Source: Takakia lepidozioides
Taxonomy: Eukaryota > Plantae > Bryophyta
Reading direction: 5' to 3'
DNA length: 64,000 nucleotides
Assembly: GCA_030704615.1 (NCBI GenBank)
Contig: CM060733.1
Location: 72,106,001-72,170,000, forward strand
This document shows positions 1-59,207 of this stretch, one piece after another (position 1 is the stretch's first letter; each line of letters opens with the position of its first letter). The notes under the pieces were generated by a model that saw only the letters and a list, made by a program, of their open reading frames with translations, searched no databases and was not told the DNA's origin. Position numbers and translations under genes: made by a program.

Positions 1-2102
1 ATCTCCTTGACTACTTGCCACAATTCAGCCGCTGACATGCTACCAATTATAAATTCGCCATCGATTAAACTTGACAGTAATTCCCATTCTTCCCAATCAG
101 GTTTTGCATGCTCTTCAAAGATGCTCTGTATCTCATATTTTGAGAACACAGACAATGACGGGTTGTTCTCCAGTAAAATCTCCAAATGAGTATCCACGAG
201 TTCATCACTTAGGCCAAGGTGATCGTTCCATCTTCCAAGCAACATAGCCAATGTTGAGCTTGCTGCAAGATCACTCTTGTCTATTTCACGTTGTGAGCTC
301 TCCATGCATCTGTAAAGGTTGTCCCATTTGATGAGCTTGTCAACATGTACATGGGGGTCACAAGTAGAATTAAAACCTTGTAACATTCCTTCACCCCTAT
401 TGGCCGCTTGGTTTAGGACGTGTAGCTCCCTATCAGCTGCCTTCCACGTAGATTCCAATAATATCGCCCGTGAGGCAAAATCCTCTTCAAATTATATCTG
501 TTGGTTTTGGCCACAAGAGCTATTGTCATAGGTGTGTTTCTTGGAGAAAACACATTCAACACGCTAGATGATTCCAGATCAATAAAATTAGTATGTGTTG
601 ACATACTAATGGGAGGTTCAACATGATCGGAACAATCCACTTCAACGCTTTCAGAAGATGCCATCGGTCGTTTGCGACGTGAACCATTTGAACTGGAGCA
701 AACCTCGGGAATAGTCACACTTCTTACTCTTGGAAAATGTGCCTGTATGGCAGTCCGGTGGTTATGCACAACGTTGGTTCCTGGAACAGACAATGCCACA
801 ACCTTGTCATTGGACACGTGACAAGAAGTAGCTGTTGGTTGAGGGAATGGAAAAGCATTGGAGGAGGATGGTGATCTTTCTGGTTCCATAGCCTCGTCCT
901 CAACATCATCATCTTCAACTTGATCATTGTTGTTGACTGTATATTCCACAACAAATTCCCTTCATTGAAGTAGGCTTGCCGATTTCACATACTCGTCCAC
1001 TTGATTTTGGACTAGAAGATAATAAGGATCAGGTATGTAAATAATCTGAACAAGCCCCACACCCAAAAATTTAGCATCACATAAATTAAAACATTCTAAT
1101 CAATACAAATATAAAAAAGAAATGTGCACGTACTCTGCAGCTAAGTAAACTGGTTGTATTGAATACATGCAAAAAGGACAAGCAAATCAAAGACCATTTA
1201 TTGTATTTGAAACTTACCCTTGGTCTCCCCCCTTTTCTTGTAGGAAGGCGTGACCAGATTTCAACTTTGCAAAGGTAGAAAATAGACTCCGGTAACACCA
1301 ATCCAAGTCATTTTCGTGCAACATCTTTCTCATTGGCAATGTAATAAAAGAACTCTGCAATGTTTGCAAACTCTGGTTTTTGATAAAAATCTGCAGCAGC
1401 CTGAGCAATATACTTCTGACCAGTCCCCTCGGCAAAGCTCACATTCGGATTTCCATACATCCCGCCCCACTTTGTTTCTGGCGGCAGACTAACAGCGAGA
1501 CATTCTCGCGCAGTAGATTTAATTCTTCTTGTGACTGCCCCTACCAATGTTGGATGTTCAATCGTGTCAATCTCCAATGGAAGGGCTATGTGACGTTCCA
1601 TAGATTGGGGCCTACAATCACGGTTGCTTATGCCAGTATTGTGGCCAACACTTGGAAATTGAAATCGGGGTGTGAGAGACCTAGATGTTCGGAGGGTGCT
1701 CCCTGTCGGTGTTCTTGGTTGGGGAAGTAAGCCATAATGTCTTCCATCTACATGTTCAAAGGGAAAATTAAAAGCATAGCTATTGGTAACCTCGCTTGTA
1801 AGGCTTTGTGGATACGTGACAATGTTCACGGCAGGATCTTCTGGTCGTATTACAGTTGTAGCACTCGGTGAAGCTGTCATATTTAAGCAAGTTCTACTTT
1901 CAGCAGCAGCACCTGTTGCAGCGCCTGAAGTCCCTCGTGAGTGTGAGCGAGTTACACCTGCAACGCCAGTAGAAGTCCCTAGGGAGCCAACGTTGGGAGC
2001 CATCTCTCGACCATCAACTTGAATTGATTCACGACGTAATGTTTGTCCACGTGACGATTGTCTATACAAATTAGACTGCATTTTGTCGAGCAAAAAGGCC
2101 AC
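1..2102 (-). pseudogene. Decayed spliced ORF, probably transposon-associated; 3' part weakly resembles the start of a Ulp1/C48 protease domain; runs off the window edge
   Basis: ORFs 1308-2102 and 413-949, plus a frame open from about 490 to base 1 (…LGLSDELVDTHLEILLENNPSLSVFSK…). GTAAGT donor at about 1218. Internal stops and frameshifts. Confidence 0.3.
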
Positions 2103-3878
2103 ACAAAACCAACGAAAATTCGCACCTACTTCTCCTTCAGAAACTTGTCATTTCAAGCATTCAGAACACACATCGTCCATCATGAGAAACAACAGGAGAA
2201 CCACCACCAAAGATTTTAGTGAGGGTTTCATTCTAAAAATTTGATATTGCACAACACCAACCGAAGTATGACCACACTGTCACACGATCGAGTTCTTATG
2301 ATCGAGTTCCAAGTCACTGCAGTTAGAAAGGGCAACCGTAAGTTTCAATGTCTATCAATGATCAGAGAGAGAGAGAGTATACGACACTCCTAGTAACATT
2401 GAGGTTATATAATGACAAAGTCTGACTGTTAGGTTAGTGTTTATAAAGTCGGCTGTGTGGTCAGTCAGTATCATAGTCCTCGGCAAATTTGGGACAGAGA
2501 AAATAGCCGACAAGTTTTCAATGAAGCATGAAAAGCCAAGCGGTTCTGAAGTAGTTAAGTTGCAAATATTTGTAACTTGTAGAAAGAAGCAAAGAACCGC
2601 CTTGGAAGAATATGTAGACGTGTCACTGTGAATAGCTCGTATACAAGCATCGGATCCGTAATGATGTACTTGGTTGCAGGAGTAAGGATCTCTAGCAATT
2701 ACCTGAAAGTCGCGTTGGATTCTAGTCTTGCGCGTCAATCTTCCCAAGTGTCAATCTTCGCTACTTCAGGTTTGCACAACAATAGTAGCATGAGCTCACA
2801 TTTCCAAGTTATTCCTTTCTCCTGTATGAGATAATCCGAGCCTACGACAATGCAATATCCATAGACACGTCCAAACATAAAGGGTCTGGCTGCAAAGTGG
2901 CTAGCAAATGGACTTCAAAGTGGGTAAAGTGGTCCACTTATGGCAAACTCCGAGATGGATGGACAAAGAACCTCCATCTCTCAATCAAAACAAACACGCC
3001 TTAATCTTCGAGTTAGAGTGTCAAATTATTGGATCTTGAGGTGGTGCACAGAAAATACCTTCTCAGATATTAAGACTTCCCCACAACTTTCAAGCACAAC
3101 CAGCAAGAGAGAAACACAAAAGAACCTACCATAATGTAAGGTATTTTGGGTAACTCGTGCATTCATTCACAAGGTTGGCAGCATGAGATTGAATTCCTAA
3201 TCACCTTAGCGCTAAGTATGTGGTATTAGTATCATCTCCTTGTTCCTGCTGTAATTAGTGGATGCACCACGACATGCGCTTGATAGTGAAGCCCTCTAAC
3301 AGCAAGAAACAACAATACTGAACATCAAGAGATTTCAAAGGTGCGACGTAGTATAGTGTCGTTGAAGATAGATTAATTGAAGATATTCGGATCAGCCGTT
3401 TGAATCTGGCTTCGTACGATATGGCAGATACGGACATTTATCAAAGTACAATCAAATTCAAATTGCAGGTGTTTCGCCACTATCTCCGTATGTACGTGGC
3501 TACAGCGTATTGCCAGGCCTCAAGTATTATACTTAAACGCTAGACCATCACTGCCCACCCACGGGCAGTACTTACAATCTCATATTTTTATTCAATATGT
3601 GCTTTGGTTGTTTCTTGAATTAAGGGATAATATAATGAATACATCTAGTTTTATAAATTGTATAAGAAAAATACATCTATTTTCCATAAAAAATGGATCT
3701 TGTCTCTCTTATCAAACTTTCAGTGGTTATGAGGTGGGACGGTTTTATGTTTGACATGAAACTGAGAAATTTAAATATAATTATTATCAAATTTATATGT
3801 AATATTGATTAGTACTGAGTACTTGAACTCTAATATCATTATAGAGAGATAATCAGATAATGTATTAAAAATTATTAT

Positions 3879-3994
3879 ATATTTAAACGTAATTCAAGAC
3901 ATATACTCGAATATAATTCTCAGGAAATAACATGGCATATTTAAACGTAATTCAGGACATATACTCGAATATAATTCTCAGGAAATAACATGGC
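3879..3994. repeat. 58-bp tandem duplication (2 copies)
   Basis: atatttaaacgtaattcaRgacatatactcgaatataattctcaggaaataacatggc at 3879-3936 and 3937-3994, 1 mismatch. Confidence 0.95.
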
Positions 3995-4667
3995 ATGTAG
4001 TGCAGTACCAGACTCCATAGTATGGGATGCCTCGATGAATATGTTGCCATCAATGTATGGAAGTGTCGCTGTGCATGACATTGAGCATGGGGCATGCGTG
4101 AAGAAGAGGGTTTTATTGCGAGAAATTTGCATTTTAAATCTGGAAAGTCGATTAGGTGCATCCAGGCCACACTTGGGGACTTGGCCCGCGCCACAGCTCC
4201 TCACACGTGAGAAGTGCAAATTGGTCGTTCCTGCCACAGGTGCAAACAGGACGCCATAATTTCGTCCAGACTGTGCGGGGAGATTAGCGGGGATTAACTG
4301 GGGTTAGAATCAGACCATCACGGTTAGGGCGGCGGGTGGCGAGCCAGATCAGCGGGTCATTGCGGGTCGGGGGGGGGGGCAATCCGAGCGTCGTCCTCGA
4401 ATGGGAATGACGGGCCGGGCGCGGGCGTGCAAGCGGGGCGGGGGTTGGGGGAGCAGGCAGCGAGGAACGGTGGCGGGCCCGTGCTTGGAGGGGGCTGGGG
4501 TAATGGCGCAGGGCACGAGAGGATTGACGCACGCCTGGGAGCACAGCGAGGTGGGAGCATGGGCGCTGGCAGAGATGGAAGTGGGCGGCGGGCCACATGG
4601 AAATGATGTGGTGGAGGTGGGAGTGAAACGGAATGGGAGTCCGCAGGATCTGGGGGGGGACAGCGAC

Positions 4668-13977
<9,310 letters not shown>

Positions 13978-16124: not shown

Positions 16125-16445
16125 TGCTAGCTCACGTGAGCGAGAAATTCCGTGAGCAGAATCCTACTCACATTGCAGGGTGACGTTGACATCATGGGGT
16201 CTACAACTGCGGACAACAAAGGCAGATAAGGCCTATTACCGCGGGTAGGAGATATCAAAATGTAGGCAGTAGTCCATGTTTTTGCGAACACAATAAGGGT
16301 GGAAGAGGATGAATGTTGGATGAATATGCGATGAAAGACAGTTGGACGAATGAAGCATGGATGAATGAAAGATGACTTCTGTGTGGATGAATGAATGAAA
16401 ACCGCAAATGTAAAATGCCATCCTGCTATACCGTTCATCCACAAT
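16125..16445. repeat. GGATGAA-rich CACTA-type subterminal repeat region, related to 33950-34213
   Basis: Shared motifs attccgtgagcagaat-ct-ctcaca and cctattacYgcggg, and arrays of ggatgaa(tg). Confidence 0.6.
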
Positions 16446-17338
16446 GAAAAGATATTTTCCATTCATCACACAAAAAATCCCTAATTTCGCGATGTGATCT
16501 TCTCCTCCTCAACTTTCCCACCCAAAAAATGCCACCTTGCATCAACCAAAAGCAGAACCCAGAATGGGTAGCTCTTGATCTTGCCCATGTTGTTGTTCTC
16601 CGGATGTTGTTCAAATTCGAGCACATCATTGCATCACTGCAAAAGGCTATTCGATTACATTGCTTATGCAACGATAATACTTTGTAGAAATTGAAGAGCG
16701 TGGGATCATATTTCAGTGGATATAGCAGCTGACCATTGGGAATCCGGAAGTACCTCGTTAAGTTGCAAACTCAGTAACAATAATGTTTGAGGGTTATTTG
16801 CTGAGTAATAGTCAACACCAATGAACTAGAGAATATTGAAACAAAGACTACCATACGATTTCAAATTCCATCCAGTTTTGGTGAGGGGAAAATTCTCATA
16901 TTGCCCACGAGTACCAAGCTAAAAGCTGGATCTCTGCAATCCATGTTGGAGATAATACTAAACACTTCAAATTAGAAAAATGTGGGGAGCCCCTCAATAA
17001 CCCATACTCTCAGCCCTACACTCTTACAACTCATACTCGAACAGCATTGTGGTCATGAAGTCAGCCTGTTATGGAACCACATAGAGACCACTTCGCATAC
17101 ATTTGCTAGTTTGACTGGAGAAAAATAACCTGGCCTCCTCACCATTGTTAAATATAGTCATGTCGCTTGTCAGTACTGAGGGAGAAGGGGTGGGACAGTC
17201 TGATGTCCTAAGAAAGTATGATCAGGCCCCACACATATCTACAAATACATGATTCCACTTATGTTATAATGTAGACACATGCAGTCTGTTACGACTGGAA
17301 AAGTCTACACTACTTCCTCGTTATAACAATGTTATTAG

Positions 17339-20300
17339 TCACATTTGTCCCTCTTGCTGGGCCGATGAATTATAACTTCGCCGCCGGAACGTTGGCTGTG
17401 ACTCCAGTGGCTGCTGCAGATATAGCTTGGTTGGATCATGCGGGTCCATGTACCTGGAATTTCAGAACAAATTTACATTGAACCATGCCTAATACAAAGA
17501 ACGCTTAGAACTTATACTGCATCCACAATATCTATTTACTGAAGACCATATTACTGACATATTCCAAGAGAAACACCACTATCTTGTACCAACCTTTTCA
17601 CTGTGTACATAGAGTCACTCAATAGCATCAGAAGCCACTTTCATCTTATGCCTCAGCAGGTTGGCAACTGCTAACACTAACACTTGTGCAGATGATCGCA
17701 CTCATATGCACCCCTAAGTGGTTTAAACTAAGCAGATCAGATACAATAATTTCAAAATTTTGTTGTCACTACTTCCCATTTAACAAATTATTCACTGCAT
17801 TTCACTTGCACTGACATGGTGGTTGCAAATTCCAGGCAAATTTACTTTCACATGAACTCAAGGTATGGAGTGAGACATTGAGTATGAAGAAAACATACGC
17901 ATGTCGCATGATGTCATCAACAGGAGGGTGGGCAGTGGGTAGTGGATCGATAGGTGGTGCTGATGGAGGGGATACCTGCAACTGCCGTTCGGCCTCCCTT
18001 ACTGACTTTATCAAGTTGAGGAATAGAGGAATGAATGTGCCCACCCCACCTTCTTTGAAAAAGATTTTGAAAGCGTGAGGTGCATACAATGCCTTATTTG
18101 CCCCCTCTGGAATCACCTGCACTCAGACAGTGATCAAAATGATGTCAGTAGCTTCAACGCATTCAGGTTTGCCAGTTAACCTCTATTATGACTGCTATAA
18201 CCTCTGCCATGAAACCTTTTCCTTCTGACCGTAGTCATGAAGGTGTTAGATATATGGGACTCCCAATTAATCCAATCCTACAGCCCATGCACCTGCCTTG
18301 CTGGCCAACAACAAATGCATCACTTACCATAAAAGGTCCAGAAGATCTATCGTACCCTGCCACACCAGAGTGCTCAGAAAAGGATCCAAAAAGACGCATG
18401 GGGAGGAGCAAGGGGTGGAAACTTGGTGGAATAGACTTACTGGATGTACTTTGCCAGAAAGATTATTGCAAAAAAAGATCGGCTGGTTAAAACTCTCCTC
18501 ATGTATGAATAGCTGCATCCAACCAGAAACAAGAGACCAATGTTTGATGCATGTAAAGCCTCCAACAGTGAGAATCATACGAGACACATGAGGCTTCATG
18601 CATCTGGGAACGAAAATAGAGGGCTGCAATAACACATTGGGTGGAATGTCGTCAATAAGGCTACAGGAAGCTGCTGCACTATTTAACACAAATAGTTGCT
18701 GAAGAGTTGGGCTACCATAGATCCCCGCCTACCATGCATCAATCCTACAAGGGTTGCATGTCTTGACGAAAAAAGTCAAATATTTCCTCACTTGATTACA
18801 CACTTTCTACAATACCAATTGCCAAAAACTACTAATCTGTTAGGGTCTTATGTAAATTTGCATCAAGAGACCATATCTATACCAAGCTGCAATTTTTCCC
18901 CACTTAAGCAAAAACTTTGAACGTACAAGAGCTAGTTTTCTGGCATAAGGGTTGAAGTACCAGTGGCATGTCAAATGCAGAGATATGCCCTTCAGGACAG
19001 CTCAACACGAATACAATCCGACAAGTAGACAAGTGAATTGTTCCCTTTCCTAACAACTTGCCTCCTGGAGCACTGTAACAAACATAACATGAATATTATT
19101 AGTTCAACAGGACTTTGGGTGTTCATATCTCTCATCCAGGCAGATGTTATAGGCCAAGCTTGTCTTTGTTTCTTATGCGTTACTCATGTGCTTTGCAGGT
19201 TCCTCTTTCTCAAGTAGTCTGTTTTTAAGCACCACCGCACATTTCGAAAAAATGGTCATTTGATTAACTACGGTCAACCAAAGACATTTGTGGCAATGTA
19301 GCCATGTCTACTTCACTTCAAATGTCTTCCATTATTTGAAGCAACCAGAAAAACAGATACAAGGAAGAATCCGTTACCCATTTTGCCCACCACGTGGCCG
19401 TTAGTTAAGCAAAATTGAGGTGTTAGCTATTCTGGTTACAGATACTAGAACACAAGCTAGGTTACAAAAAACTCATGGTATACTAACTGATCTGGGTTCA
19501 CTTCACTTTTTCAGGTAGCAAAGTGTCTTGAATCTCAAAACCCTACTGTGACGAATGTTTTATTAACAGCCTAACTAATTAACATTGGTATCCACAGTTA
19601 AGGACCTCCTGAAACATTGAGAGTTTCCCAACCTGACTTAAAAGAAAATAATTATGACGTACTTCACATCTTCGAACAGAATGAAGGACTTAAAGCACCC
19701 TATCAATTATCAATAAGAAGGCGCTCTCTCTCACAAGAAAGTCATTCCTTCCCTTCATACCTGCAAACCTCTGCTCAATTATTTGAGAGCATCTAGGATA
19801 ACTCTGGAAGGGTCATATCAAGATCGGACCTGATGGTCCTACTACCAAAATCCAAGAACACATCTCCTTATAAGACTAGACATCCCGGCCTACTCACCTC
19901 CCACAAATAATTCCTTCAAAAGACGAGCTTGGCACACTTGTCTTCTCGAATCAGTAAAAGCCTGAAAATGTGCTAGCAAACCGAGGGAGAAAAATGTTCG
20001 TGGTAGTCAACTTTTCGTGAAAGCAACAAAAGCCGAACTTTTCCATTCATGTCTGGAAAACTTCTCATGCGACAATACCAGTGAGCAGACTTGCAACTTT
20101 TATAATTACAGGCTCGCTGGTACCATAGACGGATCATTCGAAATTTTAACAGAAGTATTTAATTAGGGCTAACCAGATATCTCTGGATCCAATACCAAGT
20201 CTCTTTGATTCTTCTACCGAATTTCGGCACGGCTACGTATCGGCCAAACCTCGATTCCACCTGAATTGTTTACAGATCCACTTCACGAGTAATAAATAGA

Positions 20301-31525: not shown

Positions 31526-32584
31526 AGGGATGTTCCTGCCAAGACGCTCCCGGGATGCGTCTCAATGGGCTGCTCCCATCACAGCGGAAAATGATTGGAT
31601 ACTCGAGGACCAGGCGGCGCTTTGTCTCTTCTCACAGGTGGGAGACAATGCTGTGAATGCATCGTCTCTTTCTCTCCTCTGGCTTTTAATTCTTGCAGCG
31701 GCGCTTGTGTTGGGAAGTATCTCTCTCTCCCTTCTCAAACCTAGCAAGTGTGCTTGTATGCTTCACTTCTCCTTTGCTTTGCTGGAGGTGGCTTGCTGGT
31801 GGTGATGCCGCACAGTTCTCTTCCCCAATCGCTCAAGGCGCTTTTGGTGATTAGGGTTTCTTTTGCTTTATGTCTTTCTCTCTTGCTTTTGAGGTTCTTA
31901 GTTGACATCGATGACAAGTGTAAGGGTCTGTGATTCACCTTGGGTTCCACAATCCTCACTAACCTGTTGGTTTTTGTGGGGGCTTGTGATGGGACCAGGT
32001 GAGGATCCCTACCTGCTTTGAATTCTCTTGAGCTTGCAGATAAGGATGTGGGCAACGGGAACCTAGTGTGTATGGCGTCTTTACTTGGCTGTTGCCTGCA
32101 GCCCCAATTTCGGCCCGCTTGCTCCCGGTTTGGCATGCTGATGCTTATTTTTTACTTATGTTTTGCTGCCTTTGATGGAGCACTTCGGCCTGACAGGCTT
32201 GTCTCTTGAAGCCCAGCATCTAGACCTTACCTTGTCTTGAATTTTGGACAACATTGCATGTGGATTATTAAGCTAGGTACTGTTTTGGCCTTAAAGATGA
32301 GTTATGGTTTATGGGTAAGGCATCAATGGCTGTTAGGTTCTAAGGAAGAAGAGGCCATGTTTTCAAAGATGGCAGCCTGATAAGACAGTGACAGGCCTCT
32401 TTCAGGCCTGGATTTGGTGTGGAATGGAGCATAGTGAGGTTTTATTTGCAAAACCTGGCATAAACCTCCTGGAAAACAGTGTTGGTAAGCTCTACTGGAC
32501 CTTTGCCAGAGATTATTTACCTTATTTTGCCATCAGACCAGACACCTGCAATGTATGATTTATTTTTTGGCCAAGTGGGCTTGG

Positions 32585-33270
32585 TCTCGGGCACTCAAAG
32601 TGTTTGTGTGTCCATGTCTTGAATCTGTAATATGGCAGGCCTTTCTTCCATGCCAAAATGCCTTACATAATGCATGTCTTGGGGCAATTACACATGGTGT
32701 AGAATGAAGTTGCAGTCTGTCTTTGTCATGCCCAAGAGGGTCACTTGGTTGCATGTTTACTTGGGTGTATGCCTGAAATGTAATTAATTGCAGGCTGGTC
32801 CTTCAAGGTACTTGTATGAACATATCCAGGATCTGTAGTAAGACAGGTTGTTCTTAGTACTTACCTACCCAAGGAGCCTCGCATGATGCATGTCTTGGGG
32901 TACTTACAGATGGCAAGGAGCGAAGCTACAATATGTTTTGTCATGCCCAAGAAGATTACTTGGTTGCATGTTTGAAATCTGGTAAATTGCAGGCTGGTCC
33001 TTCAAGGTGCTTGTATGTACATACCCTGAATCTGTAGTAGGGCAGGCTGTTCTTACCTACCCATGGAACCTTGCATGGTGCATGTCTTGGGTCACTTCAA
33101 GGTACCTGTGTATACATATCTTGGATTTGTAATGTGGCAAGTAGTTCTTATATGCCCATGATATCTTGCATGATGCATATCTTGTGGATAATTATGGATG
33201 ATATAATCTGAGGCTGCAATTTGACTTATATTGTGCAAGAGGGTCACTTGGGTACATGTCAGGAATCTGA
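32585..33270. repeat. Degenerate tandem repeat of about 200 bp (about 3 copies)
   Basis: Recurring gcatgtcttggg, ttgtcatgcccaaga and aattgcaggctggtccttcaaggt. Confidence 0.75.
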
Positions 33271-33519: not shown

Positions 33520-34213
33520 AAATTGGGTTGCAAGGAATTTAGATGTTTTTCATCCAGAATCCATTCTTTTTTTCCCTAGTGAGACATTTCTTCATTAATA
33601 CCTGTGAGGTTCTGCTTCATCCGGACATCAACCCGGAACATATTGATTGCAAAACTCCCGTCTTTATTTTTTTCAATCCAACCTGGATGAGAAAAGGACT
33701 TCATCTGGCAAGACCTAAATACGAGACAAGACAGGTATAAATAAATAAATAAAACCCCGATGTTTTTCATTTAACCTAGATGAAAAACGGACTGCATCCG
33801 TCGAGTTCAAGGCAGGATGAACACACGATGTTTTTCATCTTCCGCGAATGAGAAACGGACAACGTCTGTCGGGCGTATGGGCTGGCGGATGTTTTTCATC
33901 CTAAGAAGGATGAATGACGAGCCGGACAGGGTGAAAGCACTGCGGGGGATTGCTAAACCGTGAGCAGATTCCGTGAGCAGAATTCTGCTCACAGATCTGC
34001 ATGTGCTCACCTATAACCGCGGACACCTATTCGGCCTAGAGGACCTATTACTGCGGGTTGTGTCAAGTATATCATGCATACGTCATTCATCGTTATGGAT
34101 GAACGATGGATGAACGATGGATGAATGGGGGATGAAAGGATGTTCGACGAATGGTACATGGATGAATGTAGTTTCTAGATGAATGCAAAACTAAGATGCA
34201 TTTTTCAGTAGTG
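33520..34213 (+). mobile_element. CACTA (EnSpm) transposon terminus with subterminal repeats
   Basis: Ends TTTTTCAGTAGTG (reverse complement CACTACTGAAAAA) at 34213. Dense GGATGAA/TTCATCC repeats. Perfect 20-bp palindrome GTGAGCAGAATTCTGCTCAC at 33973-33992. Matching left TIR not found. Confidence 0.7.
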
Positions 34214-34748
34214 GTTGCTAAATCCCCCTACCTCTAGAGTGAACTTCTGCCCACTGGTGAGGGTTGTGATTGTCCTTTCATCAACAATCAGAAGTCGACA
34301 TAGTTGCTGACACACATTTGCAAAGAAGGTGGAGAGGCCATTTGGTGCTTCAAAGGAAATTGTTTAATAACTAAAGATTCATTCCGACGAAGAATATTTT
34401 GTGCTACTGGAGTCGGCGTCCAAAACGAAGGCAGAACTGTCTATGAAGACACTAGCCCTGTTTTGCACAAAACCCTCTCTGTTTAAAAGCAAACCAGGGA
34501 GAGAAGAGAGGAGACTAAATTCCGAAGCTGCAGCCTCCGCATAACATGGCAATTTAAAATCTGCTTTCGGACTTCGGAAAAATTGCGGGTTTGCAAAGAA
34601 AGGGAGGAACCGTGGCGACCTTGGGCTCCTGTGCACACAAACAAACAATGTAAGTCCATATACATTCAGCTGGCCCAACTTGTGCACGAAAGATGGAAAT
34701 GGAAGGATGCGCCGTCGTGTCAGTGAATTGCCACAACTGAGCTAGCAC

Positions 34749-35714
34749 TTACTCACATGAGAAATCAGAATCAACATCAAGAGCATCGGGCTCTTGCAGA
34801 TCCGGCTCCACAACAATGTTATCAGTCTGGGTCGAATGCGATGAACCCCCAGACAGAGGTGCGATGACTTGAGAGTAGAGCTGCTCGTCCCCCTCCATCC
34901 CGAAAAAATGCCTGCCTACATACTTGCATGCATGGAAGGAAGCCCCTGCAACAGTGCAAATGGATCCACGAAACAAAGTAAGAAGCACAATCTGAAGGCA
35001 AAGAAGTGCACCCAAGAAATGGAGTTTGATTGGGCACCAACCTGTTCCCATGGACAGGTCCACCACTTTCCCACCATGCCGGCTGCATGTCTCAATCAAA
35101 GTCTGCATGAAAGCGGGTGACTTCTCCCGCCCTCTCCATGGAATGCCACCAATTTTTTTCAATGTCTGGGAGGAGTCAACATAGTTGTGGATAACATCAG
35201 ATTCCACAGGGTCGCATTCCGGGTCTATGTGAAGCCTCCCTTCCCAAACGTCGAAATGGCCAACATGAGCAGGAGTGGTGTCTGGCCGAATTCGAGCAAG
35301 ACAAATGGCCTTGAACACATGTGTCTGCAGCAACACCAATATTAGAAATGTTGTTAAGGGCAATTCCACGAAACAAGAACACACAAAAAAACCCAGGTGA
35401 GTACCTTCTGCCCGGGAAACTCTGCACTAGATAGTGGCAGGGTGTTGACACAGGTCCAAATTTTGCGGATTTTGAACCCCGAGGACTTCATGTAGCCGTG
35501 AAGCATCCGGCGGGATGCCATGTCCTCAACCTGGAAAATCAAAAACGACCCAGCGAGAAACGCACTTCGGGCAACATTCAGAAATCTTCAAACAAAAGTG
35601 TCATCCCGGAGGAGGAAGACGAAGAGGAGGAGGGAGATGGTGGAGCGTCAGACAGAAACTTGTTGCTGAAAGAGAAGGCCCACTGCCAATAAAGTGGATT
35701 ATGAGCATTCCAGG
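34749..35714 (-). pseudogene. 5'-truncated, intron-containing N4-cytosine/N6-adenine DNA methyltransferase-like gene (beta class)
   Basis: Exons about 35714-35594 (tentative, frameshifted in a CT-rich tract), 35530-35405, 35324-35042, 34945-34749. Spliced protein …GYMKSSGFKIRKIWTCVN…PWRGREKSPAFMQTLIETCSRHGGKVVDLSMGTGASFHACKYVGRHFFGMEGD resembles the N6_N4_Mtase C-terminus (KP.L…LI…GD.VLD.F.GSG.T..A….R..IG.E.D). Confidence 0.7.
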
Positions 35715-36325
35715 TTTTTTCTTGTGCTTGGCAAGACTTTGCTTTGGTTAAGGTAGTAGTGTTGTGGTGCTGGCGGAGTCCTCCCCGCATGGTTAGGCTT
35801 GTGGAGAGATGGCGACTCTCCCCCAAACAGTAAAAAAAGTTATTTTCCGATTTAATTTGATTCCCTGCTTTCTTTGGCATTCTATGCGCTTAGATTGAAG
35901 TGTATTTGACCTCGATAGCAAGTATGGAAGCCTGCTACTCACCTCGTGCATCCTCACTAACTCACGGTTGTTTTTGGGACAGGCAAAGGTGAGGGCTTCC
36001 ACTTAATATTCTAATGTGTAGGTGCTACTGGATGCCAAGTGGGATTGCAGAGCAGGGGAAGGAATCGCTTGCCAGGGACTCATCTTAAAATGCTGAAAAA
36101 CTAAACTACTCTATGGTTTTTCTTGATTCTATCTCTTTCCTTCCTTGATTTTTCAAAAACGAGTGTAATGCTTTCTACGATGGGCTATTTTGGCCTAGCC
36201 AGTGGAAAACCTTTGTTATGTGGTGACAGCCTGGTTTATGATGGCTTGTGTGAGAGACACACATCTGTTTTCTAGGCCCTAGTTTGCTTTCCTTACCTTA
36301 TGGTAGTTGGAAACAAATTGAGAGG

Positions 36326-36346
36326 TTTAGGGTTTAGGGTTTAGGG
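36326..36346 (+). repeat. Interstitial plant telomeric repeat (TTTAGGG)3
   Basis: Read directly from the sequence. Confidence 0.9.
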
Positions 36347-36919
36347 TTGCAAGGAACTGTTTGCTACAGCTACTCGGGTACCTATGTTGGTATAAGGCCC
36401 TTATTATATTCCAACCCAGATGGCTTTGTGAGCTAGATGCTTAAGCCAGGGTATGGTGAAGTTGCTGCCTGCGGCTATTCGGCTGACACTGAAATATGGC
36501 AGTAATATAAATGGTAACTGGTTTTTGATGCAGCCAGGATGGTCAAGTGGAAATACCCCCTGGACATGGTGTAATGACATGGTCAAATGTGGAATTGCAA
36601 ACAGTAAATTTGTATGATTATTTGACCTGCACCACATCAAGGCCAAAATATGGCCAAGTACCCGCCATCCCACCGAGACCTCTGAATGTGTATCATGATC
36701 ATGACTGGTGGTTAATCAACATCAGTGGCATACTCTTTGGGTTATGAATAATACTGACATGAACACAGTACTGTGCATGGATGTAATTCTGGATTTTCTA
36801 AGCTTGGTGATTGATGGATGGTGCCACTGTTAAGTGGCTGATATGTCTGATTATTCTTTCATGACAACGACCCTAGGGGTCTTGTCTTTGTCTTGACATG
36901 ACAAAAAGTATCTTCCCTC

Positions 36920-36976
36920 TCTTCTGCCCCCTCTCTCTTTTTTTTTTTTTTTTTTTTTTTTTGGGGAGTGACAGAA

Positions 36977-37032
<56 letters not shown>

Positions 37033-41807: not shown

Positions 41808-41909
41808 AGGGTAATGCCCTGAGTGGAGGGCATTCCCGGCTTTAAGGCCTACCGCCCTCGGCCTCAGGCCCTTAAATCCGGGAATGCCCTCCACTCAGGG
41901 CATTACCCT
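41808..41909. repeat. 102-bp foldback element with perfect 32-bp arms (MITE-like)
   Basis: agggtaatgccctgagtggagggcattcccgg (41808-41839) is the exact reverse complement of 41878-41909. Confidence 0.9.
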
Positions 41910-42199: not shown

Positions 42200-42417
42200 T
42201 GTGCCTTTGGCCCACTATGAAGAGTTGAAATCTAAGACCAAGTGCAATTTCCTATGTATCCCACTGCGTCTCCTATGTCAAGGCCCAAGTGCGACCTCTA
42301 GGGTAGCATGTGCCTTTGGCCCATGTATGAAGAGTTGAAATCTAAGACCAAGTGCAATTTCCTATGTATCCCAATGCGTCTCCTATGTCGAGGCCCAACT
42401 GCGACCTCTAGGGTACC
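42200..42417. repeat. About 109-bp tandem duplication
   Basis: tgtgcctttggccca…tgaagagttgaaatctaagaccaagtgc…gcgacctctagggta, two copies. Confidence 0.9.
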
Positions 42418-42773
42418 CTCTGCCGTTGGCCCAAGAGTCCAATGTCATGTAAGTCCAAATGCATTTTTTTTTCCACAGAGCCTACGACCAAATTTGAACC
42501 AGAGTCCTTTCCCTTGATATCTCTTCAAGGCTCCAACCATTGTCCCAAGATAGCCCCACATTGCTATTTTTCGGGAATTTTCAGCGACCCAATCTTGCAC
42601 CACCAGAGCTGCTCAAGAGAGCATACGATTCCATCCAACGGCCACCCAATCTCACAGTTGAGGGCATTTTGGACCAAGGGAGACAACCACAAAGGGTGTG
42701 ACATGATGTTTGATGCTATGAATCCATGGGGTGACTGTCCCCCCTTTGCAGAACGGTTGGCCATCCAGGAGCA

Positions 42774-43050
42774 ATGATTTTTGGACCTACGTTGTGGAAG
42801 ATGTGGACTTTCAACCAAAGGAAACAACTCGAAGTGGGACAAGTTCTTCGGACTAATGATATTCATATCTGTGCTGGGCAGAAACATGGGAAACGTCGGA
42901 TAAACTGGTTGGAGATGTGAATGGTTATAAATGGGCAGGTAAGATGTGTACTTTCAAGGCAGCCTCTGCCAAACGCAGTCAAAAAGGGGCTGGATTCTTT
43001 GTCCGTGATTTCTTGTTTGACAATTGTGAAATTATCAACTATACATCGTC
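42774..43050 (+). mobile_element. LINE ORF2 N-terminal AP-endonuclease fragment
   Basis: NQRKQLEVGQVLRTNDIHICAGQ/ETWE…VNGYKWAGK…KGAGFFVRD with one frameshift; abuts the truncated end of the methyltransferase retroelement. Confidence 0.65.
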
Positions 43051-43469
43051 TCTCTCCTCCGGTGACTATAGGTCCAACATCAGGCTCCCAGTTGTCCTCT
43101 GTGACTGCAACCTTGAGTCCAGCAGGCTTAGAGGTAGAAGACGCGTTCCGTGGTTGCTATGCTGCAACCTCTTGAGCAGTGACCACCGCCTCTTTTGTCA
43201 GTGACAATGTCTCATCCTGCCCCATCATCCCATCCTTGAGGACCTCCTCAACCCGAGAAAAATCCCCAACCTCATCCATCACCGCCGCCTTGGCTGCCAA
43301 CTCCTTCTGAACCTTGAGCACCTCCCACGTGTGCCATGGATGCGGCCTGCACCTCGTGGTCCTCACCTATTCGCCCCCACTCGCTGCCTGTACCGTCTCG
43401 GTAAGCAGGGAGACCATCAAGGGAAGTGTACTCCGTACTCGGCGCTGCTCAGCCATAGTCAAGCTGATA

Positions 43470-44415
43470 ATCCAGGTCAAGCAATTGAGATCCATTGCTT
43501 GCCCCAACACCTGACGACGTGATGCCTCAGAAAGAGATGGCTCCGCCGTGGTACCAGTGGTAAAACCCATCGCCCGCTCGCGCTCGTCAGCATTGGGCTC
43601 CACTAATTGCTGCAATTGGCTATCCCACAAGAGGCTAGGTCCACCATCCCGAAAAGCATGAGATCCTGGAAAGCTGAGCAGTGTAGGCAATGCGGCTTGT
43701 GGGTGACCCACCTTATTGACCACTGCCAAAGGTGATCGGTCATCGTGTCTCACATGCTGAGACTGCCTCCTTATGTCCAAAATGCTATCCACCGTCAGGT
43801 GTGGTGGCCGCTGCACCCCATCAAATGCACGCTTGAGCAGTGCAGGTGGCATCAAGTTGGTCCACCATAGTCGTGGGCGATGAGCCCGTAACCCCACTGC
43901 AGCTGCGTCCAGCAACACTGCTAACCCAAGCCCAGACCGCACTTGATGCACACTGGCCATCACCTTGGCTCGAGAATCACCCATCAATGGCACATTCTCC
44001 AAGATATATGCCGGAGAGTCTGTATGCTGAAGCTGTAAATAGCGTAGGACCCTCAACATCTCCCAAAACAGGCGTGACCTTGAGTCTTGTAACCCATTGC
44101 CATGCCCGGCTGATGAATGCCCTTGGCAGGGCCAACCTACCACTACCAAGTGAATAGGGTCAACCCGCTCCAAATCATACGCCCCCAGCAAAGAGATGTC
44201 TGCTGGCAATGCTTGTTGGTATCCACGAACTGTAGACACTAGCAACAAAGCAGGGTACTGCTACACCAACTGAGCAACATAGCGCAGTGAGACGCGTCAT
44301 GTAGTCTCATCCCTTTCCACATACAGGTAACGTCAAACTCGTACACCTGCCTGCAGCACTACAGCCAATCCACTGTTGATTCCGCCAAACAAGTCCAGAA
44401 GGCATATGCCTTCAT
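43470..44415 (-). pseudogene. C5-cytosine DNA methyltransferase domain within the retroelement polyprotein
   Basis: Motif I LLDLFGGINSG; II YVERD; III ADI; IV GWPCQGHS (catalytic Cys at about 44127); VI ILENVP; VIII AHRPRLWW; IX ERERAMGF; X RRQVLGQAM. Three in-frame stops (TGA, TGA, TAG). Confidence 0.93.
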
Positions 44416-47400
44416 CCGGGCACTGCCACACAAGAAGTGTGGTGTCCAATGGCGACAACTGAGATGGTCCTGGTGCAATCACCGCATTCTCCTCCTCTCC
44501 TGACGGTACGAAGGCTTCTACCCAGGCTTGTTGCACCCGTCTATCAGCAGCCTGCTGTAAATCCTTGCTCGTACCCCACAATGGAGTGTGAGCAACCATG
44601 GCAGACAACTCCGCCGTACCATGCATATCATCCTGCTCTGCTGGAGGTGGCACATCCTCTGCATGGGCATTGCCCTCCAGCAACTCTCCAGGCCAATTAA
44701 CTGCAGCTGTGAAGGCTGCTAGTGTTGGCATCTTGCCCCACTGGGCAGCAACAACATCCCCAATGAATGTCACAGGGAGCTGTACACGACGACCATTCCC
44801 TGACTGCCATCCAGGCCTGTAGGATGCTGACTCATCCCAAAAATCCAGGGTGAAGCCCATGGGATCTGCCCCACCAACGAGGACATCGTAAGAGACCGCA
44901 TCTGTCACAATGGCCTTGGCTCGCATCACTGAGCCATCTATAGGATGATCCGGCTGTAATCTAATGGCCAACTTACGCCGTGTCATGCCCCAAGCCTGCT
45001 CTGATCATCCCAGAGATGTCTGTATCTGGAAAGGACAAGGCTCCATATCCGCCTCCATGAAGCCCAAACATGCAATAGCAGCTCTGCCCAACATTAGTGG
45101 CTGAGCTCCCGAGTCCAACAAGACCCGCAGTGGCCGGTACCTCTTGCCTGCCGGTCCACTCAAAGAGAAAATGTCATCCTGGTTGTCTAACAAGACAACT
45201 CCAGGTGTCACCATGGCGCGCTCAAAGTCTGGCCTAGCTGGCAGCTCCGTCAACCTGGCAGTTGCAGCTTGCCATGGCGCAGCCGTGGAAGTCTTGACCC
45301 TCAAATCCGAGGATCCCTCTGCCACTACACCTTCCACTAACTCCGCAGAAAATGAAGTGACCTCCCCACTCTCGTAGAGTGTTGCTGCTAGTCTGAACAC
45401 TGCAGCTGGTCTTACCTCCGGCGTCGCAATCATGGTTGCCGAGAACAGTGGGGCTTGACACACAAAGGCGGCTGCCCCCAACAACACACTGGCTGCACTA
45501 GCCTTGGCAGCAGGTGTCAGTGCTGCACGTGTAGCTCTCCCCAATGGCACAATAACGGCCTCTGTATCTGTCGGGCGAGAACTAGGTGCCATGGATGTCG
45601 TCGACACTGTCTCCCCCAAGATGAATGATTGTGGCAACCTAGCCTGATGGCTTGCCTCCCCACGCTGTGGATCTAAGTCCACCTCTGCACCTCGTGGCTC
45701 AGGAACTCGTGTTGCTCCTCGAGTGACGGCTGCAGCAGACTCCACCTGCACTAGTGGTAGTGCTGTCCCACACATAAATCCCATGCCTCCCATGTCTCCT
45801 CCGTCAGGATGACGCTGCTGAGGAGGAACAGGAGGTGGACCCTCAGGTCTTGGAGCTGGTACCACCTGAGCTGTGGCCATGGCAGCAAGCCTTTGCTCTA
45901 GTTGCTGAAGCCGGTTGGTCATGCCTTGGTCAACGCCCTGACCTCCACGTCATTGGCCATACTGTGCTTGCCCTCGTCCTACACCTCGTGCTTGACCACC
46001 TCGTCCTCTCTGAGGTGCTCTACCTTGCCATCGGTTACCATTGTTCCCTTGGAACTGGCCTTGCCGCAACTCAGGGTGCAAGTCATAACACTGGGCATCT
46101 CCATGCCCATACTTGCCACAATGCCCACACTGCAACTGTGTAGGCTGTGCTTGTGCCGACCTTTTGCCACTCTCTGGACAATCTTTCTTGACATGAGGTC
46201 CTCCACATATCCAACATATCACCCCAAGTTGCTGTTGGCTTACAAAAGATGCTACTAGCCTCTGCACCTGAGGTTCCCTGTAAGCTCCATGGAATTTGGG
46301 TTGGGAAACCTTGCCCCCCTGACCACGCTGTTGGGCAGTCCCTTGTGCCTGTGGGCTGGCAGCTGCGCCTCGTGCAGGCATGTCCTTGCCAAATCCAATG
46401 GTAACAACTCGCTCCTCCACCATGTTGAGCTCAATCCGCTCAGCCAACAGAAACACATCTACTAATGTGGGTTGGGCTGCTTGTAACAGGGTTGTATCCC
46501 GCACCCTTCTCCTGAGCTCTTTATCCAAAATTCCATACCAGAACTGGATTGCCTGAGCTTTAGTAACCCCTTGGGTCACACTTATCAAGCGCCTCATACG
46601 AGTGTAGGCCTCTCGCAAGCTCTCACTGGATTTGCATTGGAAGTCTTGCAAACTTCGCAGCTTCTCTGTCCGTACACCTTGGTAGTTCCTCCGCAACTTC
46701 TGGAAGAACTCCACCACCGGGCTGAATCTAGGCACATGTGTTGTAGTCGTGCAGGAGAAGTAGTAGCACCTTCTACAGAAGTACCGGCACTACTTGTTCC
46801 ACTACTTGTTTCACTACTAGTGCTGGCCGTGGGAGATATTGGTGTTGATGCCGCTACTGGTCGCGTTGTGCCTCGAGTAATGGCGACGTAGTCAGGAGAC
46901 CAATACATCCTCCACTCCTCAATCTCTGCTTCATGTCCTTGCCTGAACTCGTGGTAATCGTCCATAGGCGGGCCTTCCAAATGCTGGAACAATCCCTTCC
47001 ACGCCATGAATGGGGTGAACAGCTGTGGATTGCGCATCTGTTGCAAATCACACCAGCTGTCGAACTCCTGGATAAAGTCATCCAGCTCGATTGTGCCCAC
47101 AGCTCCAGAGTACATACGAGGCCCCTTAGTAGTTCCATACATCTCCTCCATGTCGTCCCACAATAATGGCGAAGAAAACTGCACACCTGTTGATGAAGCC
47201 TCCGGGTCTGTGTCAGACTCTACAGTAGTCGAGGGTGGAGGTGAAGGTGGTCTGAACCGAATACCTCGTCTTGTGAACCCACTCTCACTACTACTGCCTG
47301 TAGTTGTACTCCCCTCAACACCCTTGGGTAACTCCGTGATGACACTCACAACGTGCACCTCCCCTACGTGACACTATAAGGCTCCAGTACTAATTCTAAT

Positions 47401-54527: not shown

Positions 54528-57500
54528 TCACCTAGCCATCTGACCTGGAATCTTCGACAATAACAGCACAGATGAGACGTTACCTAGTGCAGAGGCAGCA
54601 GATTCTACATGCTGCATCAAAAACTCATAAATTTTCCGCTTCAGCCTTGCCTTGGTGTCCACAACCTTTGGATCTGGCACTTCTCCCTGCCCAGAACCCA
54701 CCTGATCCTGGTCTAACCAGTCATTTACTCTTTTCAATTGTGACAACATGGCTGCAATGTGACTATTGTCTTGTTGAGATACAACTTTAGAAGCCAGAAA
54801 ATTAGCACCTCTGTCACTTACACTTGTGACTCGGAAGCCACTGTCAAGGGCGCCCTCCATGAAGTGGAGAAACCAGCGTTGTGCTTCACTCTGAAGCTGC
54901 TTTGCTAGCTCAGCTGTCTCTGTCAGTCCTGTTCCCTTGACCCAATTGGAAACCATGGGAGGTGACTTTACCTCAGTGTCTGGCAAGTCCTTACTCGGAC
55001 CTTTTGTGCTGCAGCTCTTCAATGAAACAACTCTGCCAGGGCTGCGCCGAGAAGCAAGCACTGGTGATTTCATTGGAGATTGGGGCCTTGGATCCCTATT
55101 ATCTCGCCTACGTTCATTCCCAGTTTGAGTCACAGAAGACAAGGCTGTCCGAGCATTAGCAGAGGCTGGGGTTGTCAATGACCTTGCAGTGGAGGCTGAG
55201 GATGGGGAAGTACTAGTGCCGAGTGGTGCCAAGCTGGTCGATCCATCCAGCAAAACCACCACCTGCTGGTTGATGGCACTCTTGGCCCGAGCTTGCTTGC
55301 TCTGAAGTGAGAAGACTGCCAAATCTGATGACAATGCCGCATTTACCCATCCCGCTGCAATACGTGCCTTCTCTGCAACAACTTGGACTTTCTCTGGTGA
55401 GGTGCCGTTTGCATCATCTCCTGCTGTTTCAGCAGCATGCCTGGTGCTGGCCATTGCATCAGCCACTGCGACTGCCTCTTTCAAAGACTGGTGAAGACAC
55501 AGAAACCGCTCCACGGATGGCTGAGGAAGCTCTGTCCTTGCCAATGAGCACAGCTCAGCAAACATGCTGTATGCAAGCAATCCCAGGTTTCAATCAGCGA
55601 CCCATATCCAAGAAAAGCAATATCTAGTAACCTTGAAAGAGAATACCTCATCGGCATTTGTACATCTGGGCTGAAGGATTTTACGAGCAGCATCCATGAT
55701 TTTGGTTGACAAACTAATCTCATAGCTACACTGTGCTTAAATCATCAAATATGGTTTAGAAAGCTAAACAACCAAAGGCTTGACAAGCTTAGAACGAGTG
55801 CTTGAAAGGTGCCAAACTAGAGCGAAGGATTAGAGTGGAGCAATGATGTGACGAACAAAAGAGTTCAGATGAGCTGAAGCTTCTACCAACTCCTCACATG
55901 TTTTTCAGCTCCTCGTTGTCCCGAGTCCTCGGTCGAATGTTGTTTTGGGAACTATAATTATTAATGCGGTAAACTCACAAATCACAAACAACACAGCAGT
56001 CCTCAACTGAAAAGTACACAGGTTTATCATTTTTATACATATCACACACTGGCAGAATCAATGCTCGCCAATGGAAGCATGCCTAGTTTTACCAGTGTAC
56101 CAGCTTGTATTCAAATGGGATCACAAGAACTGTGATGCTATCATGCTATAAATGAATAGATGGTACTCTCGTCCTTGAAAGACGCAAGGGCACCATGGCG
56201 AAGACAGCGATTTATATCACTTCTGCATGCAAGCTGCTTGTCTAACACCGAATAATGACAATAAGCAAAGGTTTTTTAACTCAAAAAGTGAAGCCCAACA
56301 ATTTCCTATCCCTTGCCTCAAACTTCGAAGAACACTCTCTGCTGCTGAAGCCTCCTGCAGAGCTTCTACTGCTGCTGATGAAGCTGCATCCCTTGTTTGT
56401 CTGGCCTCCTGATAGTTCAAATCATGCAAATGTAAGCTTCCCAAGTCTTCAAATCTTCACAGCTGTTAACCAAAAGATCTCTGTTATCTGGGGATTCATT
56501 TGCACACCATCCATATGCAAGTAATCTTGATGGAAAAGGCCACACTCACACTGTGATATCCTCTGGTTGGCAAGCTTCTCATGCTACTTGAAGCATAGCC
56601 AAATTACAGACTCTATTGATGTAGCAAATACCTTGCCGAGTGCTGCCAGAGTTGTGGGAAGGGATTCCCATGAAACACTGCCATCTGTCCACATTTTGTT
56701 GATAATAACCTCCTTGTTTATGGTTGATGGCAGACAAGGATCTATAGGAGAGACAGCCCTCTTCACAGGGGTAAAGTTTGAGACTTTAACATGCACTTTA
56801 GCAGGTGCCATTTTTGGAGATGAAAGGCCCTTGTCCTGCCCCCTGGTCAGTGTAGCACTCCCATTCCTGTCACTGGTCTTCCTTGAAACTGAAACCTATA
56901 CATCGAAGAAACACTTGTCACATGATAGATTGCATGACAAATTTCATCCCCTAACAAAGGAGTTGCTGCCTCAAACAATAAAAGTCAAGCGAGGTAAGCT
57001 TCAAATGCCAGCCTAAACCAGCATGCAAAATCCATACCGAGTCTTCCAGACAAAACCATGCCAGTTTTACAAAGTGGAACTCGTGGCCGCTGAAGGATAT
57101 CAATAGCAAGTGTTTTCACTTTCAGTCAAAGCTTTTTGAGGTTTGCACTTCAAGGCTTTTCCCACCTCCCAAGTTGAAGGGTGGACCATATTTCCATTTT
57201 CTCTAGTTGCACATACTCTGACCTACAATTGGGGGAACCCCCAACCCCCACGAAGTGGCCTCAATTACGGCTTGGTGACAGGCCCACTACCTGCCTGGAC
57301 AGAGTTCCCACAGTCCATGAAGTGTTGACAAACATTAACTCACAATACTTTTTTGTGTTCTAGAGAGAATGTACTCATAAGACATTGTTTGCTGTGGCCT
57401 TGTGGCCATAGACCCTGCGCCCAGTTTGGGTGGAACAAAAGGGAGCACTACCTTTGTGAGGGGCTCACTCCGGTAGTGTGACTTACCTTGATAAAGACAA

Positions 57501-59207
57501 TTAGTTCGGGATTTCCAGATATCCTCGAGAAAGTTCTTCACACAGCATCAACTTGTGTGTGAGCTGCCCAGCAATTAGACCCCAAGAGGGCCAGGGCTTT
57601 AGGCTCAGCCTCAAGATTTTGAAAGTTGGTGAACACAGGTGCAGGGACAATGTTCTTGATGGTCCTGAAGAGGGTCACTCTCTGGTGAGAATATCCCGGA
57701 TCTCTAGAGAGAAACAGATTACAAGCAAACTGCTGTGGCTTGTTTTTTCTAAGACAAGTTACTGCTGAGGCAAAGTACATACATCCTCAAAAGTATCATA
57801 TAGCCCAGGGTGGACCTTCAAAATGAATATTCCATCACAACTAGTACCCAAAGTCTCAGAAATAATCACACACAAATCGTCAGCTGGAAGACCATGTCTT
57901 GTCTAACTGAAGAAGCACAATAAAATTAGCAAGCCACCTACAGTGGAGAGGACAGTAGCTTTGACATCTCCTTTGCCTTGCTTGTTGGAGGCTGTTCGAT
58001 CTCTGCTATCCTTCACTCCAATGGCTCCCTCCCAGCTTTTACGTAAACCCTTGGTGCTGACAGTGGCCACATCTCCAGAAGGACATCCACCACCTAGAGA
58101 GCGCCGCTTACTGCCATCTCCGACGCTCATTCTATGGATGACTTTCCCTGCGCTCATTGCTCTCTTCACACTGGGAGACAATTGCTTGGACCTAGAGGAA
58201 ATCAGAACAGAAGCTTCTTTGTGAGGGATTTTTCTTTCATCAGCACCCAGTTTAACACCCCTCCTGAACATCATCTTGTCCACAGAAGACAATTTAGATG
58301 CAGGTGATCCTCTGTCTGTAAGCAAAGAATTTGTAGCTCCATGTGAATTCAAGGGCGAAGTAGAAATTGGGCAGGAGCGTCGCGGCAAAGAGGTTGAAGA
58401 ACAGTCAAGAAACACCTTAGACTTTACAACTCTGCCTTTTGGTCGGGAGCCGGACCGCCCTTCATCTTTCCTCCTCTGTTCAACTAAAGATTCAGACCCT
58501 AATGAAGAACTCAGAGTCGGCCTCTCCGAGAGTTGAGCACAAAAGTCATTTGCAGGCCGCGTGGCAGACCCATTTGAGGAGAACCCTAGCTCTTCATGCT
58601 GCACCTTGGAACCTTTGGGAAAATGTGACGCCAACCTGTCTTCATGTTTGCCATAAACATGAGGCTCTGCCCCATTTGATGCAGAAGATCTTTCAGCAAA
58701 CTTAGCTGCAACACTTTCTGCAGATGATGGGTCAAATCTATTGGATGACGTGCGAGAGAAACATGCTTGACAACTGTCAATTGAATCCAAAGAGCAGAAG
58801 TGATCAGGATGCACTGCAACGCTGATCTGAAGAGAAGGAACAACAGTGGCAACAACATCTTCAGGAGCTCCTACACATTGATGCCTGCCTGGAAGGGGCC
58901 GGACACCTCGGAGAAGAGGGACTGGAGACCCAGCTTCGAGCCTGTCAACATGAATGAATTGCCCAAGCTGCAGCTTATCACTCAGTATGAGATCATCGTG
59001 CTCTTCTGCCAGGGAAACATACGTTGCATGGGACGAGTCAGAGACTCTAATGTAAAATCCTTGATTCGGCCAAAGTTCACTGCCTGCAAGCGCAGGCACA
59101 ATGCTAATGACTTGCAAAAGAGCAGAGCGGTGCTCTCCTGTAGCTTTTTCATCCGAGTTCATGTGCTGCAGAAGCTTCAGGAGAACTCCAGGAGTTAGGG
59201 TCGCCAT
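54528..59207 (-). CDS. DUF936 / CORD-family microtubule-associated protein, 4 exons
   Basis: Exons 59207-57942, 56895-56632, 56408-56317 (GC donor), 55566-54528. [87 protein letters not shown]. Confidence 0.93.
57362..57700 (-). mobile_element. LINE 3' fragment in DUF936 intron 1, same family as 12778-13267
   Basis: Collinear nucleotide similarity starting at gagaatgtactcataagac. Confidence 0.85.

Follow-up and report, generated by a model that had tools for sequence, protein, structure and literature searches.

A transcribed, truncated copy of a many-copy amino-methyltransferase-like gene in Takakia lepidozioides

Does a stretch of Takakia lepidozioides DNA that resembles part of a bacterial amino-methyltransferase gene belong to a working enzyme, and is that gene carried by a transposon? 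Acquired cases of 4mC, as far as PMC12344493 lists them, are those of Marchantia and Adineta, and amino-methylase cargo in DNA transposons is already on record for algae in two reports (PMC12477816; bioRxiv 2025.02.11.637652). A preliminary description of the locus had proposed an N4C/N6A amino-methyltransferase beside the end of a CACTA element, and had drawn the comparison with Marchantia DN4MT1 and bdelloid N4CMT. Here we follow the gene, its relatives and its surroundings in a window of 64,000 nucleotides, which is the whole stretch of DNA that was analysed.

Results

Setting of the gene fragment

The window is plant nuclear DNA, with genes of the DUF936/DUF6857, aminotransferase and glutamate dehydrogenase types and the C-terminus of UFL1. 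The methylase-like fragment lies within repeat DNA between a Gypsy-type pol and the UFL1 gene:

24.5-27 kb, Gypsy-type pol (RVT_1, RNase H, integrase)
38.5-39.9 kb, UFL1 gene
43.4-45.0 kb, C5 methylase, on the far side of the UFL1 gene

The C5 methylase shares no similarity with the amino-methyltransferase-like gene, and the two are unrelated, as had been stated before. It forms part of a decayed retrotransposon-like run of open reading frames on the minus strand (42400-47400), in which a gag-like frame (E 0.017) and a protease-like motif recognized by eye are followed by the C5 DNA methylase (PF00145, E 1e-10). This run resembles the Dnmt-bearing Gypsy elements described for Klebsormidium in PMC5890265. 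Adjoining the region, at 41808-41909, are near-perfect inverted 40-bp repeats separated by a loop of 22 bp.

Gene structure and splicing

The gene is on the minus strand, and GT-AG introns are read at three places:

35644..35714, minus, surviving coding piece just after motif IV, with the conserved Trp-Asn and the following helix (tblastn of P0007, P0042 and P0074)
35643-35552, minus, 92-bp insertion with a 4-bp direct repeat, bringing a frame shift and a stop; kept in the transcript
35405..35551, minus, remainder of exon 1 with the core strands; past the insertion, the first in-frame ATG is at 35521
35404-35325, minus, 80-bp GT-AG intron, spliced out in the X1, X2 and X4 contigs
35042..35324, minus, exon 2: variable region, the family's WRG.REK motif (motif X position) and motif I strand
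35041-34946, minus, 96-bp GT-AG intron that splits motif I, skipped in X1, X2 and X4 contigs
34757..34945, minus, exon 3: motifs II-III and an acidic tail
34756-34629, minus, 128-bp GT-AG intron, skipped exactly in X2 and X4 and as a near variant in X1
34341..34628, minus, last exon, untranslated in the window copy; an X1 contig extends to 34341

The 80-bp and 96-bp introns were thus correctly anticipated from the genomic letters, and the peptide quoted at that stage is what is read after splicing. X1, X2 and X4 are runs of one sample from one study that had been labelled 'DNA?' by guess; we take them to be RNA from their splice joints. In the DNA run X3, the joints of the 80-, 96- and 128-bp introns are absent among the 10 joints listed. 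One X4 contig of 749 nt contains all four exons, joined, with zero differences, so the spliced template is this locus or an identical copy. A possible 63-bp intron had also been suggested, and a GT-AG pair of that length can be placed by eye at 35593-35531. Spliced contigs with zero differences run through it (X1 records 4-5, X2 record 14, X4 record 23), and its removal would cost the protein a strand to which relatives align; we therefore rejected it.

The third intron was absent from the preliminary description, as was the 92-bp insertion. Removal of this intron creates a TGA stop codon at the exon junction. Read in another phase, the last exon has a weak likeness to the downstream exon of relatives (tblastn E 0.002-0.04; loci L006, L005 and L009 among 12). 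It was probably coding at one time, and this likeness in another phase suggests a third lesion.

Loose ends at 35041 in X1, X2, X4 and X6 read as spliced paralogs, X6 being a run from another study that was labelled 'RNA?' by guess. Among the expressed paralog contigs, X1 record 2 (958 nt) continues for 844 nt upstream of where it matches. A paralog contig in X1, X2 and X7 joins 35293 and 35399 via 14 other letters, as would a spliced paralog with a shorter junction region.

Lesions of the window copy

The 92-bp insertion breaks the reading frame (its length modulo 3 is 2). Relatives align by tblastn over 35715-35647 and again from 35551 on, a single residue separating the two sides. X3 depth falls to 98 at 35568-35609, as against 1,257-7,304 in bins outside the insertion core, and from this drop we conclude that few if any other copies carry the insertion.

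Homology to relatives ends at 35714/35715, just after the expected place of motif IV, where the preliminary description had seen the fragment break off. Upstream of it the 5' part of the gene is replaced:

35715..37000, strand not assigned, right boundary unmapped, unrelated and far more abundant repeat DNA, recognized from X3 depth and from the differing flanks of other copies

Depth summed over X3 contigs, which is not a copy number, is 17,000-58,000 over this repeat versus 2,000-12,000 over the gene. Other gene copies carry different flanks at 35715-35740, and one X3 paralog contig, translated by hand, stays in frame past 35714 where the window diverges. We found no family match upstream of 35714, and neither the 5' part of the gene nor a second copy within the 64-kb window. 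X1 record 5 spans 35552-35745 with 0 differences, reaching 31 letters past the junction, and the transcript appears to run in from the upstream repeat. Three to four plant telomere-type TTTAGGG units lie inside that repeat (36325-36346).

Translation from the first ATG past the insertion gives at most 196 residues, and these lack motif IV. Since it cannot encode this motif, the window copy is a transcribed pseudogene, and it is close to certain that it is dead.

A family of diverged copies

With the unspliced window ORF, a full HMMER search of 1.84 billion proteins returned 44 at E<=0.001, at least one of which is spurious (P0031, a repeat protein); a word-based search with the same ORF gave no match. 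A family profile found 12 proteins, two of which had already turned up, and, out of 480 candidates, 12 metagenome loci. The relatives are named 'hypothetical protein' or are unnamed in the source databases. Many carry stops, and many have introns, read through as coding sequence, at two sites that they share with the window gene, among them the motif I site (35041-34946). This bears out the earlier view of a eukaryote-adapted, intron-bearing family, as do the spliced contigs. Near-identical relatives occur on different contigs within clusters. Relatives of 826-2355 residues were not found, which is weak evidence. Viral contigs held no family relative; tblastn of P0074 found none in phages, where P0021 reached Vibrio phage methylases at E 0.8-0.9 only.

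Many diverged copies are present in the T. lepidozioides genome: 370 X3 contigs match along 1,241 bp, 53 of them at 99% or more, 112 at 95-99%, 114 at 90-95% and 91 at below 90% likeness. Of the 117 differences listed between paralogs, the 40 with the best support supplied 30 exon sites; 20 of these fall on third codon positions and 18 are synonymous, compared with an expected 23%. This pattern points to past purifying selection.

Fold and catalytic motifs

We compared the family to known methyltransferases by profile and by predicted structure. Against PF01555 the unspliced window ORF scores 14.5 bits (E 0.035), below the gathering score of 26.7, and the single exons have no Pfam match. All 44 matches of the first search stay below the cut-off (the best at 26.5 bits), 13 of them having E<=0.1. 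The window reading scores 143.7 bits with the family profile, whose alignment was made without the window sequence. This profile in turn matches M1.HpyAVI (E 2e-5), an arginine methyltransferase and CcrM (0.004-0.005) and N4CMT (0.025). In hhalign comparisons with phage methylases (96%), the family's D[ILV]P[DE] falls on DPPY, whereas the N-terminal halves alone give a weak result (6.8%). Atlas matches of 0.89-0.91 to phage N6_N4 methylases serve as a lead only.

The evidence on the fold comes from a model of the relative P0007 rather than of the window protein (pLDDT 68, pTM 0.70). The predicted structure has a permuted Rossmann fold, with motif IV before motif I, and superimposes on CcrM with Z 19.0 (rmsd 3.8, 221 aligned). 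Ten further beta-class enzymes score at Z 15-19, among them MboIIA (18.8), and N4CMT (8S9N) scores 16.6; the Foldseek E-value is 5.9e-11. MT-A70 proteins score lower, at 10-13 (MTA1/METTL3 11.7-13.1), and DPPW is absent, which argues against an assignment to the MT-A70/METTL3 type. The predicted fold and the motif order IV ... X-I-II-III would be shared with the beta-class DNA amino-methyltransferases (PF01555; CcrM 6PBD, M.MboIIA 1G60, M.BceJIV 8URK, M1.HpyAVI 5HEK, M.PvuII 1BOO). Profile, hhalign, Foldseek and CcrM comparisons together agree with the beta-class ancestry proposed earlier.

The family differs from these enzymes in its D[ILV]P[DE] motif IV, in a motif I that is usually without Phe and in its spliceosomal introns. 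Among 118 proteins and 12 loci, 45 relatives cover the motif IV column, and the aromatic residue is absent from all of them. They read DLPE (17), DIPE (12), DVPD (11), DLPD (2), EIPD, NIPE and DLPI (1 each), so that 44 of 45 have an acidic residue at the aromatic position. These 45 sequences are not independent but fall, by eye, into about six or seven clades, none from T. lepidozioides. [DNSH]PP[YFW] is found in 0 of the 45, and motif IV is missing altogether from the window copy; the control phage enzymes have DPPY in 70 of 70. In motif I (DxFxGxG), 51 distinct stretches keep the Asp, and retain the Phe in 2, the first Gly in 17 and the last Gly in 38 cases; the window copy has both Gly and no Phe. 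The family keeps the first Asp of motif IV and the Pro at its third position, a pair of near-invariant Trp residues and, in most cases, the last Gly of motif I; the Trp and Gly of WRG and the Asp of motif I are invariant in alignments A2 and A4. Judged from its sequences, the family is one that functions like or derives from a beta-class methylase, yet it lacks the catalytic motif of that class.

Among the outcomes that would count against it, the preliminary description had named a missing Rossmann methyltransferase match and a lack of both motif IV and transposon linkage in all intact paralogs. A fold match was found, scoring above MT-A70; the second outcome was seen in part, in that canonical motif IV is absent from all 45 relatives that cover it. 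With the window copy broken, the proposed enzyme comparable to DN4MT1 and N4CMT is not borne out.

The CACTA-like end and the search for a transposase

33540..34213, plus, repeat with GGATGAA/TTCATCC arrays, closed at 34198-34213 by a CACTA-like terminus; it lies outside the gene, lacks coding capacity and has no partner end

The letters at 34198-34213 look like a CACTA terminus. They lie 543 bp from the gene stop, in agreement with the distance of about 540 bp given previously, and the gene is outside. The end closes an element to its left and faces away from the gene. The pattern, chosen after the fact, has 1 match where 0.16 are expected; the bare TAGTG pentamer, with 99 occurrences in the window, carries no weight by itself. 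We searched for a partner, and the best candidate has 13 of 20 matches at this decayed locus, where paired CACTA terminal inverted repeats with a 3-bp target duplication are not seen around the gene. The terminus is credible but unpaired. X3 depth passes smoothly from the array into the gene, and the window transcript reaches to about 130 bp from the end. The idea that TAGTG at 34213 is an internal part of a longer conserved repeat is weak (11 of 300 shuffles reach the score), and we set it aside.

No Tnp2/Plavaka transposase was matched in 223 window ORFs (13-22, 27-34.3 and 35.7-38.3 kb), the remaining window having been scanned for domains through selected ORFs only. None was found in 101 of the 159 ORFs of the 12 relative loci, whose contigs of 1.0-2.6 kb are too short for linkage.

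Several repeats accompany these sequences. A second copy of the repeat core of 33940-34200 lies at 16128-16480 (score 133 versus a shuffle maximum of 47), without the CACTA-like end, and beside this array is decayed, coding-looking sequence on the minus strand (17400-19500) with no match to Pfam or to the methylase family. A tandem array of about 200-bp units, 70-90% alike and very abundant in X3 (32580-33270), could be part of one element with the gene. Eight of the 9 relative loci tested (12 are in the set) show tandem or repeated units of at least 40 nt, and four of the nine show palindromes or long inverted repeats. The arrays and inverted repeats beside the relatives at L003:2011-2426, L010:1-869 and L011:1366-1854 are candidate binding sites; these regions hold 139-nt and 212-nt tandem units, each with a 22-26-bp palindrome, and long inverted repeats.

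Discussion

Our preferred explanation, which we consider reasonably probable, is that the window holds one copy of a plant gene present in many; it is transcribed and spliced, but its 5' part is cut off and its frame is broken. The intact gene product, on this view, has a predicted beta-class fold, is likely catalytically dead and likely served a DNA transposon as an accessory protein that binds DNA. By origin it would be a bacterial or phage methylase of the beta class that entered a mobile element, where it may have gained introns and lost its base-stacking residue under selection that preserved the fold. Such a protein could then bind palindromic arrays beside its own gene without methyl transfer, and this binding may help the element to assemble or to evade host silencing. 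Read-in from the adjacent repeat presumably keeps the window copy transcribed, and its product would be at most 196 residues long and without motif IV.

Two parts of this explanation meet counter-evidence. The kept Asp and Pro of motif IV, the two Trp and the Gly of motif I also fit a rebuilt active site, and intact members might then be active methyltransferases in which D[ILV]P[DE] stands in for DPPY, base stacking falls to a conserved Trp (that of WRG or one following motif IV) and the element repeats are marked with 4mC, 6mA or another modification, with the window copy still dead. An acidic residue in 44 of 45 relatives looks like a fixed change rather than drift, and the invariant WRG Trp and Gly and motif I Asp, the complete fold of the P0007 model and the purifying-selection signal all agree with such a site. 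However, an aromatic motif IV residue stacks the target base in this methyltransferase clade according to PMC4738411, changing SPPY to APPA (Ser and Tyr together) abolishes N4CMT activity, as reported in PMC8885841, and motif I is eroded as well; we regard active members as unlikely. The fuller version, in which land plants harbour intron-bearing, transposon-borne amino-methyltransferases of phage type that are expressed and, with the rebuilt D[ILV]P[DE] and Trp site, write a non-5mC mark on their own palindromic arrays, would amount to a self-marking transposon system hidden from Pfam, and appears quite unlikely.

The other part is transposon carriage, for which copy number, setting and analogy argue, and against which stands that no transposase or paired terminal inverted repeats are tied to any family member in the sequences scanned. 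The genes might instead form a host (domesticated) family, of which fragments were captured and spread by non-autonomous elements without being native cargo. The lack of a transposase in the ORFs scanned, the conserved introns and the expressed, spliced paralogs would suit a host family; several near-identical copies on different contigs within clusters, stops in many relatives, repeat arrays beside the gene and a functional name in no source speak against one, and we hold it to be decidedly unlikely. That a canonical 4mC/6mA enzyme family is carried by the CACTA element ending at 34213 strikes us as highly improbable. The terminus with its subterminal arrays, the smooth depth change and the PF01555 cargo that bioRxiv 2025.02.11.637652 reports for red algal EnSpm/Plavaka elements are in its favour, but the end faces away from the gene and is unpaired, and no relative has a canonical motif IV.

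We compared the dead accessory protein favoured here to other systems. The giant transposon Sola1-1_Ec32 of Ectocarpus carries an N4/N6-methylase fused to ParB (PMC12477816). Red algal Plavaka/EnSpm elements carry PAG2, a PF01555+SET cargo gene, and inverted-repeat arrays are reported alongside PAG3, the ParB gene of Plavaka (both bioRxiv 2025.02.11.637652). The present family has in common with this cargo a PF01555-type domain in a eukaryote and a repeat setting, a likeness by description rather than by sequence. The algal genes are ParB or SET fusions in defined elements with a transposase, whereas for the present family no element, ParB or SET was seen; a ParB-like domain had no Pfam or Atlas match in the available N-terminal part of the relatives, which are gene calls on intron-bearing DNA whose upstream exons are probably missing. 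DN4MT1 and N4CMT likewise have the eukaryotic beta-class fold (8S9N), but they are active host enzymes with TSPPY/SPPY, the former being reported to keep TSPPY in bioRxiv 2021.02.12.428880; the present family is multi-copy and without SPPY, and DN4MT1 is set apart by description. METTL14 and the DIRS1 methyltransferase domains resemble the family in having kept the fold with a disrupted catalytic motif, and the DIRS1 domains are transposon-borne (PMC4738411), yet these belong to other clades (MT-A70; PCIF1-like).

The window pseudogene cannot be counted as a third eukaryotic 4mC enzyme. Of more interest is the family to which it belongs: Pfam fails to detect it, it has many copies, it is expressed with apparent purifying selection, and its non-canonical motif IV is fixed. 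We found no description of it for land plants in the literature searched, subscription papers lying outside the search. If it is transposon cargo, the algal class of methylase accessories would extend to land plants.

Elsewhere in the window, a 340-bp repeat is present in two copies that are 80% alike and 44.6 kb apart (12778-13124 and 57362-57700), likely LINE ends, and an ORF on the plus strand (5404-5967) has a C17orf113-type zinc finger (PF25431, E 5e-25).
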